Source: Schmidtea polychroa (lineage: Eukaryota). Taken from it: DNA of 64,000 bases. A program made the position numbers and the translations under genes. Shown piece by piece: positions 39,956-41,333 of this stretch. Each line of letters opens with the position of its first letter. Positions within the stretch are counted from its first letter, which is position 1. Location of the stretch: contig CM097885.1 of the NCBI GenBank assembly GCA_044892525.1, positions 150,412,001-150,476,000 of the forward strand, in the 5' to 3' direction. The notes beneath the pieces are model-generated. The model was not told where the DNA came from. It did no database searches and was given only the letters and a program-made list of their open reading frames with translations.

Positions 39956-41333
39956 ATGGATAAACGACAAAGAGAAGAGTTCAGAGAGATTGTCGAACAA
40001 GTCAGAAAATCTACAACGATCAGAACACACAAACATGTTATGTGTGGAATATGCGAAAAGTTACTAGAGGAACCCCACCAAACCCTATGCGGATGCCGAT
40101 TATGCAAAGAATGTATAAAAGAAACGATAAAAAACAGACCACAGTGGTGCCCGGTGTGTAAAGAGACACTAATATCAAGTTTAGAAGATACTAACGAGGA
40201 TAAAGACGCAGTAAAAGACATGTTAAACACCAATCTGGGATGTAAAAATACCCCATGCGAGTGGAAAGGAGTAATATGGAAAGTAATGCAACATATGGGA
40301 GAATGTATGTACAGAGTCGGCCAGTGTGAAAGGTGCCATAAAACAATTCGAGCAAGCGAAGAAAAAGAGCATCAAAGACAATGTGAAGAGAGACTAGAAA
40401 GATGTGAACATTGTGGAGAAATAGATACGTGGAAAAATCTCACCATCAAACATCACAATGTCCAAGAGGAAAAGGTATGTGCAGAGTTCAGTGGTGAATG
40501 CACGAACGGATGCAATGAAGGGAGAATAATAAAAATAGCCCAACATCTAAAGGAATGTGAAAAGAAAAGAATGATATGTGTACTAGGTAAATGGGGCTGT
40601 CAGAAACTACTACACCGAGGAGAATTACCGCACCATTTAGTAGAGAATGCATCGACGCACGCAGAAATGTGGTCCACTGCGCTACGAGAAAATGAGGAAA
40701 AAGTGCAACAAATGGAGATAGAAATAACATCGTTGAAAGTGTTAGTCAAAGAACTATTGGAGGAAAGAGAAGCGTTCGAAGAAGCCAGAGCAAACATAAA
40801 GATGCAAATAAATCGTATAGAAATCAGCAATAATCAGGCCAAGGTGCTACATCAAAAGATAACTGAGATAAATCTCAACGAAGTAATACCAACCGCACCA
40901 TACGTATGGAAAATAACGGGAGTAAAAGAAAGAATACGAAAAGCAAAAACCGGAGAAGAGACAAAAATAACGAGCCCCGCATTCCAGTCTTGGAAAAATG
41001 GGTACAAAATGAAAATGAAGATATATCCCAACGGGGACGGAACCGGAATAGATACACACTTTTCGGTTTTCTTTCTTTTATGCAAAGGAGAATACGACGA
41101 AATAATAGAATGGCCGTTCCAGGCGAAGATCGACATCGCACTAATGAATGACCGGAACATCCACGAACAAAGCTTCAAGACAACGGGAAACCAAATGTGT
41201 TACCAGAGACCTACGGAAGAAGAAGGGTCAGCAACGGGAGCGCCTACAACAAAAAGTAGAGGATATGGCGAGAAATGACACAGTATATATCAAGATGACC
41301 GTGAGGAAAGAGGGGAAGGGCAGAACAGAGTAA
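39956..41333 (+). CDS. TRAF: TRAF-family protein (RING, TRAF zinc fingers, coiled coil, MATH), frameshifted near 41240; intronless
   Basis: CGICEKLLEEPHQTLCGCRLCKEC...CPVC RING; GCKNTPCEWKG...HMGEC zf-TRAF; YVWKITG...SPAF...GYKMKMKIYPNGDGTG..THFSVFF...GEYD..IEWPF MATH. The terminal strand NDTVYIKMTV is in another frame ending at 41333. Confidence 0.92.

Follow-up and report, generated by a model that had tools for sequence, protein, structure and literature searches.

The window, i.e., the analysed stretch of 64,000 nt of Schmidtea polychroa DNA, holds a TRAF gene inside a giant retroelement; the gene is complete in sister copies but broken in this one. This raises the questions of where the element obtained such a gene, whether it is still maintained, and for whose benefit. 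The first-pass annotation had read the gene as an mRNA-derived capture that acts as a TRAF mimic or dominant negative in TNF/Toll signalling, and had added that such elements could seed host TRAF families.

The TRAF gene and the element around it

The element copy comprises the following features (strand and basis in brackets).

18121..20521 (+; LTR alignment): 5' LTR, its 5' end cut in this copy
20530..20547 (+; seen in sequence): primer-binding-site-like stretch
20848..21354 (+; PF13920, E 5e-10): BIR-less IAP-type RING ORF upstream of gag
22393..28040 (+; Pfam): polyprotein part 1, broken here, with gag including CCHC knuckles, a long region and the N-terminal half of an env-like fusion glycoprotein
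28041..31216 (-; repeats and ORF): nested insertion splitting env, bounded by terminal inverted repeats of 16 bp and containing an ORF of 776 codons (28490-30820)
31217..39350 (+; Pfam): polyprotein part 2, with the C-terminal half of env (PF24664), protease, RT, RNase H, integrase and ankyrin repeats
39484..39870 (+; dN/dS 0.11): accessory ORF G, directly upstream of the TRAF
39894..39955 (+; sister comparison): AT-rich non-coding stretch of 62 nt that leads up to the TRAF ATG and contains TATA-like and AATAAA-like words
39956..41333 (+; ORF, Pfam and sister alignment): TRAF accessory gene, RING - zinc fingers - coiled coil - MATH
41482..44127 (+; no Pfam match, H with dN/dS 0.096): accessory ORFs H, I and J
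45862..48262 (+; LTR alignment): 3' LTR, the part matching the 5' LTR (99.5%), with the true start further upstream

The element is a Burro-type giant Ty3/gypsy LTR retroelement of planarians with a length of 30 kb. It spans 18121-48262 (including a 3.2-kb insertion) in the order IAP-type RING ORF, gag, env-like fusion glycoprotein, PR-RT-RH-IN, ankyrins, G, TRAF and H-J. The LTRs match over 2401 bp with 99.5% identity (11 mismatches). Upstream of the 5' LTR, all 11 other fetched loci continue alike while the window copy does not, and no target-site duplication is seen at the window insertion, whose termini are incomplete (start of the 5' LTR cut). The stretch at 20530..20547 may be similar to tRNA-Pro. 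Both LTRs contain a 251-codon frame (19227-19982 and 46968-47723), which has no Pfam match and recurs at 53-82% in 10/12 sister stretches.

The IAP-type RING ORF is present in 10/12 sister stretches and shows a dN/dS of 0.078 over 11 copies. According to Pfam, it provides only a RING, and a BIR is absent from the window family. Its C-terminal part matches the IAP of a second Burro family (32-40%) that is introduced below. Between this ORF and gag, the leader contains 74-nt tandem repeats (21934-22377). Many sisters show one 4732-codon frame that extends through the integrase. The window polyprotein is broken in several places, and its part 2 has an in-frame stop at 37089-37091. The Pfam scan finds no MATH domain within part 1 (22393..28040), and the long region of this part shows two weak matches, namely a Bcl-2-like stretch (E 0.069) and a ubiquitin-like one (E 0.74). 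The helical Bcl-2-like stretch (26535-27020) is 31% identical to the same stretch of the second family. Its likeness to Bcl-2 is faint, with a Pfam E-value of 0.069, no PDB sequence match, no Atlas lead over 0.81 and a low-confidence model (pLDDT 52) for which Bcl-xL/Bax are found only at E-values above 1.

The nested insertion is likely a young DNA transposon, for whose 776-codon ORF no Pfam family was found. Since the 5' LTR is cut, env is split by this insertion and the polyprotein is disrupted, the window copy is a young but dead insertion. An ordinary minus-strand gypsy element of 5.2 kb is located nearby (5870-11070; 228-bp LTRs 99.6% identical, gag and pol open). Furthermore, long inverted repeats of about 600 bp (12146-12834 and 49251-50456; 98.5%) enclose the Burro copy and are possibly a DNA transposon that received the Burro insertion.

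The TRAF gene starts with the ATG at 39956 and continues in a single frame up to the stop at 41276-41278, i.e., it encodes 440 aa. The RING is placed at aa 30-68 (Pfam score under the cut-off), followed by zinc-finger segments and a coiled region, while MATH (PF21355, E 1e-22) covers aa 336-429 and is cut short at aa 429. ORF and Pfam data thus confirm the RING-ZnF-coiled coil-MATH order proposed earlier. The RING motif reads CGCRLC, as had been reported, with Cys at the position of the His found in most TRAFs. The frameshift that had been suspected near 41240 was traced, via alignment to sister copies, to an 11-nt deletion just after 41242. As had been stated, it displaces the last MATH strand: NDTVYIKMTV is encoded at 41274-41303 in a different frame with stop at 41331-41333. 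Because of the frameshift, the product stops at 440 aa (unbroken sisters: 462 codons) without the two final MATH strands and would not fold a complete MATH domain. None of the contigs from 4 public runs bridges the deletion point, and the lesion may be real or an assembly error.

We compared codon use of the element TRAF with that of pol and of seven host TRAFs. Third codon positions are similar for TRAF (A 0.47/T 0.14) and pol (A 0.45/T 0.18), in contrast to the host genes (A 0.30-0.38/T 0.30-0.44). The RSCU correlation of the element TRAF is 0.71 with pol and 0.15-0.57 with the host TRAFs (n=7). That is, the codon bias does match the element, as the first-pass annotation had it.

To describe the intact protein, we used a natural unbroken sister, for which PF21355 is matched over the full model (E 1e-24). 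Among PDB sequences, TRAF3 is found with E 6e-27 (MATH and coil align), and aa 28-154 match the RING-ZnF region of TRAF6 (E 3e-15) as well as TRAF5 and TRAF2. The AF2 model of the sister shows a complete TRAF with a pLDDT of 93 and a coil helix at 232-307, and Foldseek relates it to TRAF3, TRAF1 and TRAF2. Within MATH, the residues aligned to the TRAF3 groove, which presumably are receptor contacts, are kept or conservatively changed in both subfamilies (see below). At the position of the TRAF3 groove Arg, 24/30 element copies have Lys, and the partners of the element TRAF may therefore differ from those of host TRAFs.

Upstream of the TRAF, a homologue of ORF G with 29% identity occupies the corresponding position in the second family. 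Over the 62 nt that precede the ATG, the mean pairwise difference is only 0.032 (30 copies) vs. a dS of 0.30 in the ORF, and we therefore consider this stretch a likely expression signal. AT-rich short spacers with AATAAA-like and TATA-like words are found between the accessory ORFs throughout 39350-44330, and the spacers on both sides of the TRAF are near-invariant in 36 copies. As evidence of expression we set aside the 306, 64 and 1 contigs that three public runs, taken for RNA by guess, gave for the accessory region, since no silent stretch served as control.

Sister copies and selection

Complete TRAF copies within this element number well over a hundred across the genome. The protein search with the TRAF, for which the best 96 of 1899 candidates were scored, favours similar proteins; all 96 loci are 89-100% identical to it, and 90/95 (without the window) are stop-free within the match. 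We therefore also assembled a sister set chosen by the integrase alone: every fourth of 150 integrase matches, i.e., 38 stretches. The TRAF lies within the fetched stretch for 36/38 of these copies, with an unbroken 462-codon frame in 30/38. Among the 6 broken genes, 3 have single stops and 3 have deletions elsewhere in the gene. Concerning the two stretches without a TRAF, one shows a TRAF match about 15 kb further, and in the other the sequence gives way to an unrelated gypsy element. A general absence of the TRAF from sister copies, which would have spoken against a resident gene, is thus not observed. The 11-nt deletion of the window is absent from all 38 stretches, i.e., the frameshift is private to the window copy among these sisters.

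Further relatives were collected by protein searches, where a word-seeded search gave 1 relative and a full HMMER scan the others. In total, at least 96 + 17 + 91 TRAF-coding loci match element families, namely the window family, a subfamily with a TRAF 72% identical (RT 98%) and the second Burro family. Matches with 487 and 4791 codons, which could be mistaken for separate families, are one.

Next, we evaluated selection among copies. Pairwise dN/dS of the TRAF is 0.119 overall (30 unbroken integrase-chosen copies), with 0.065 for the RING, 0.127 for the zinc fingers, 0.143 for the coil and 0.109 for MATH. Other parts of the element yield 0.020 (RT, 34 copies), 0.012 (IN, 36), 0.095 (ankyrin, 33), 0.110 (G, 35) and 0.096 (H, 28). 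Maximum likelihood estimates an omega of 0.154 with lnL -5503.3, compared to -5766.3 when omega is fixed to 1 (29 distinct sequences). A first data set of 29 of the top 30 protein matches (omega 0.136) was biased to similar proteins and was thus redone with the copies above. The TRAF dN/dS is 0.094 for the 72% subfamily (15/17 copies; the 2 with stops left out) and 0.158 for the second family (14 copies). Between the subfamilies, the coil shows 61% identity vs. 72-73% for RING, zinc fingers and MATH. All 8 RING cysteines are kept in 29/30 copies of the window family and 14/15 of the 72% subfamily. Neutral evolution, named before as an observation that would count against a working gene, is therefore contradicted by strongly purifying selection (ML omega 0.154 vs. 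1).

These values bear on the simplest alternative, i.e., that the TRAF is a neutral passenger or a recent chance capture. The frameshift and the disrupted polyprotein of the window copy fit this idea, but omega values of 0.09-0.16 in three lineages refute a neutral passenger, and the same position in two distant families argues against chance capture. We see practically no room for it.

We also asked on which level selection acts. Constraint is weaker on private than on shared changes (pN/pS 0.31 vs. 0.14, Fisher p 0.008, 8 long-branch copies dropped), and disabling lesions (TRAF 6/36, RT 4/38, IN 2/38) are similar per kb. Since private changes are less constrained and lesions per kb resemble those of pol, selection on the TRAF acts mainly through element replication. 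Neither lesion rates nor the comparison of private and shared changes suggested any maintenance of inserted TRAF copies by the host beyond that of pol.

Origin of the element TRAF and the host expansion

To trace the origin, we compared the window family with the second Burro family, which has at least 91 loci. Its pol is 76% identical to that of the window family and its order is pol-Ank-G-TRAF-BIR/RING, with the TRAF at the same place but only ~29% identical and directly followed by a 392-codon BIR-RING IAP frame. This family carries two TRAF-derived units, a MATH within the polyprotein and the full-length TRAF. The groove of the polyprotein MATH is near-canonical (43% to the window TRAF MATH), while that of the full-length TRAF is more eroded. 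The BIR of the IAP is most like BIR2 of XIAP and not like the TRAF-binding BIR1 of cIAP. Given this likeness and the BIR-less window family, the sequences would not imply a TRAF-IAP partnership.

In the full-length tree (35 rows), the element TRAFs form one clade (100/99) that is nested in a planarian TRAF group (100/99); the clade is also found with support 99 under a site-mixture model (quick tree, 26 rows). A further site-mixture quick tree of 63 rows was used only for choosing rows. Three database proteins were labelled as element proteins only after seeing the first tree and have no genomic context, and a shared compositional bias of element proteins can draw them together in trees. The AU test rejects that the window family TRAF arose independently from the TRAF2A-like host clade (p 0.0019) but not a grouping of all element TRAFs with that clade (p 0.23). 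We infer that the gene was captured once, long ago, from the single-exon TRAFs of planarians; the trees would fit more than one donor paralogue. The gene order common to both families supports one capture independently of the trees. Host capture, as proposed in the first-pass annotation, is thus borne out by the nesting within the planarian TRAF radiation, and long residence by the element-like codon bias and the same position in two families despite TRAFs of ~29% identity.

The route of capture was approached via a MATH family search, for which the best 150 of 1551 candidates were scored. Here, the best matches are host genes that have no element flanks, and several are full-length single-frame TRAFs. 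Cys replaces His in the RING of 9/10 host full-length single-exon TRAFs examined (the tenth without motif match) and also in TRAF-2, -4 and -5 of Dendrocoelum. Planarian proteins (Dendrocoelum, Dugesia) are the nearest named relatives of the element TRAF, which is ~30% identical to host TRAFs (best host match 31%). Because the His-to-Cys change and the intronless state are both traits of host planarian TRAFs, neither is a sign of a dominant negative or of mRNA capture. That is, Cys as inactivating change is ruled out, and so is intron loss as proof of retroposition, since the closest host TRAFs are single-frame themselves and have no coding introns to lose. The step from missing introns to an mRNA-derived capture hence does not hold, although capture at the RNA level is plausible for a retroelement.

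The unexplained TRAF expansion of planarians is reported in the accessible parts of PMC6109357 and PMC8807557; the former, as far as accessible, does not relate it to transposons of this kind, and the word 'traf' is absent from PMC11410931. Element TRAFs were suggested to have seeded such expansions, and single copies could have been domesticated as stand-alone host genes. We consider either very improbable. Dense clusters of host TRAF-like genes are found on C2 (about 105-124 Mb and 1.4-5.4 Mb), form their own clade and represent the host expansion proper. The MATH-only tree (58 rows) places 13 sampled cluster genes and one single-exon gene in a clade of their own (99/96), while support for joining the three element MATH types is weak (94/77). 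Joining the window family with the host clusters is not rejected (AU p 0.117, 172-column MATH alignment), which leaves some room for seeding. Against it, in the two host cluster genes examined the RING and the MATH are encoded in separate frames, which would fit an intron, and none of the 8 host MATH frames scored shows the third-position A-over-T skew of the elements (-0.14 to 0.14 vs. 0.37-0.63). Furthermore, element DNA was found in only 3/45 (partly overlapping) host stretches, as short fragments away from genes, and none of the sampled host TRAF loci has the Burro pol-Ank-G/H context. Flanking by LTR or pol, the check that had been proposed for seeding, thus fails at the sampled loci.

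Regarding domestication, we inspected 20 further TRAF-chosen element-type loci. RT and IN are present for 19/20 and G and H for 20/20. The one locus with no pol upstream would be a candidate, but it has a stop in its TRAF, and among the best-scored candidates of these samples no stand-alone element-type TRAF with open frame was found. The seeding claim of the first-pass annotation is therefore unsupported, and the host expansion itself looks independent of the elements.

Function and relation to known systems

A functional explanation has to accommodate the architecture, the copy number, selection on every domain, a frameshift private to one copy and, in the second family, the place before a BIR-RING IAP. 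Our preferred reading, which we regard as probable if only just, is a stand-alone accessory ORF under strong purifying selection whose product functions as TRAF adaptor and RING ubiquitin ligase in the ordinary way and shifts host signalling to survival of element-replicating cells. The conserved stretch upstream would drive a separate TRAF transcript, the protein would form trimers, its MATH groove would bind partners and its RING would act as E3. The pro-survival direction is suggested by analogy with host TRAF-2A/B and the Burro1 IAP. In the accessible parts of the respective sources, host Smed-TRAF-2A/B are needed for cell survival (PMC7586133; PMC8807557), Burro1 is transcribed upon piwi loss (PMC8532177), and stem cells are reportedly shielded from apoptosis by the IAP of Burro1 (Lee et al. 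2026, as cited in PMC13465017).

Purifying selection is compatible with either direction of effect, i.e., a decoy that folds and binds would look alike. Such a decoy or dominant negative of the unbroken copies would bind receptors or host TRAFs without signalling and damp TNF/Toll-type immune output. Several observations fit: the ~30% identity to host TRAFs, the coil as the fastest diverging part between subfamilies (61% vs. 72-73%), the Arg-to-Lys change in the groove of most copies and the more eroded groove of the second family's full-length TRAF. However, the features cited for it before are either host-wide (His-to-Cys) or private to one broken copy (the frameshift and resulting truncation), and the RING is the most constrained TRAF domain (dN/dS 0.065). 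To our knowledge, classic dominant-negative TRAFs lack the RING. The dominant negative derived from RING His loss and frameshift is hence abandoned, and a decoy in general is rather unlikely.

We consider it unlikelier still that the TRAF is a redirected ligase, i.e., an E3 with no role in survival that acts on a host restriction or sensing factor, either removing or modifying it, much as viral accessory proteins do. Several ubiquitin-system modules are under selection or present in the element (TRAF RING, IAP-type RING with dN/dS 0.078, the faint ubiquitin-like stretch), and a selection mainly through element replication (lesions per kb like RT/IN; pN/pS 0.31 vs. 0.14) would suit such a role. 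On the other hand, all four TRAF domains are retained, as expected for a signalling adaptor. Given the confident TRAF model, the kept RING cysteines and groove, the survival role of host TRAF-2A/B and the Burro1 IAP, we favour the intact adaptor and E3 over both the decoy and the redirected ligase.

More speculatively, Burro might carry a self-contained survival kit (full TRAF E3, IAP and Bcl-2-like), with the TRAF as second cargo gene beside B-IAP that aids stem-cell survival and regeneration, and a sizeable share of the 'expanded TRAF' transcripts of planarians might be element cargo. We put this forward as a tentative, rather doubtful extension. The element TRAF is a direct RNAi target for the regeneration question, adjoining an IAP with a reported regeneration role. 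Because at least 96 + 17 + 91 TRAF-coding loci match element families, planarian TRAF counts and RNA-seq assignments should separate element cargo from host genes.

Compared to known systems, the element TRAFs share with host planarian TRAFs (Smed-TRAF-2A/B, Dugesia japonica TRAF2-like A, Dendrocoelum TRAF-2/-4/-5) the domain order, single frame, all-Cys RING and zinc-finger layout. In contrast, the host genes are low-copy, follow host codon use, have orthologues in other planarians and form separate groups. Vertebrate TRAF1/2/3/5 (PDB) are alike in MATH sequence and fold but have a C3HC4 RING with His, about 30% identity and no one-to-one orthology.

Planarians harbour giant gypsy-like LTR retrotransposons known as Burro/GYPSM1 (Jurka 2007; Grohme et al. 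2018; summarised in the accessible part of PMC6431247). Within that part, Arkhipova and Yushenova (2019) list MATH_TRAF_C, BIR, ankyrin and BCL2-like motifs for Burro elements, and MATH_TRAF_C is encoded in an accessory ORF of a Dugesia tigrina element. With about 30 kb, long LTRs, one huge polyprotein and accessory ORFs, the window element resembles the Burro/GYPSM1 described there, and it also shares the mononegavirus-like env between gag and pol, PR-RT-RH-IN and the ankyrins. Its size agrees with the 25-30 kb and long LTRs of Burro, and the 4732-codon sister frames, although broken in the window copy, agree with the polyprotein (~4,800-5,100 aa, domain order). Concerning the apoptosis/ubiquitin cargo, the window family has TRAF and IAP-type RING, no BIR, and faint Bcl-2/ubiquitin stretches. 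The Burro1 description (polyprotein MATH and BIR-RING) fits the second family better than that of the window, a comparison by description only.

B-IAP of Burro1 (Lee et al. 2026, Dev Cell, via the accessible part of PMC13465017) is likewise a host-derived cell-death regulator carried as Burro cargo. It differs in that functional tests are reported for B-IAP, and the window family keeps the TRAF but not the BIR. In the literature as far as accessible, TRAF and Burro occur together only in PMC6431247, and no selection or phylogeny analysis of Burro TRAF cargo was found; Grohme 2018, Jurka 2007 and Lee 2026 may already show the ORF, and the latter may describe it as a TRAF. Of the TRAF, the accessible Burro/GYPSM1 description names just the MATH_TRAF_C domain, located either in the polyprotein or in an upstream ORF, whereas the window family has the full RING-ZnF-coil-MATH gene downstream of pol, no polyprotein MATH in the scanned stretch and no BIR. 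Thus, TRAF-domain cargo of Burro elements was already known as a bare motif (PMC6431247, accessible part), and what is added here is that three element lineages maintain a complete TRAF under selection, with an IAP adjoining it in one of them.
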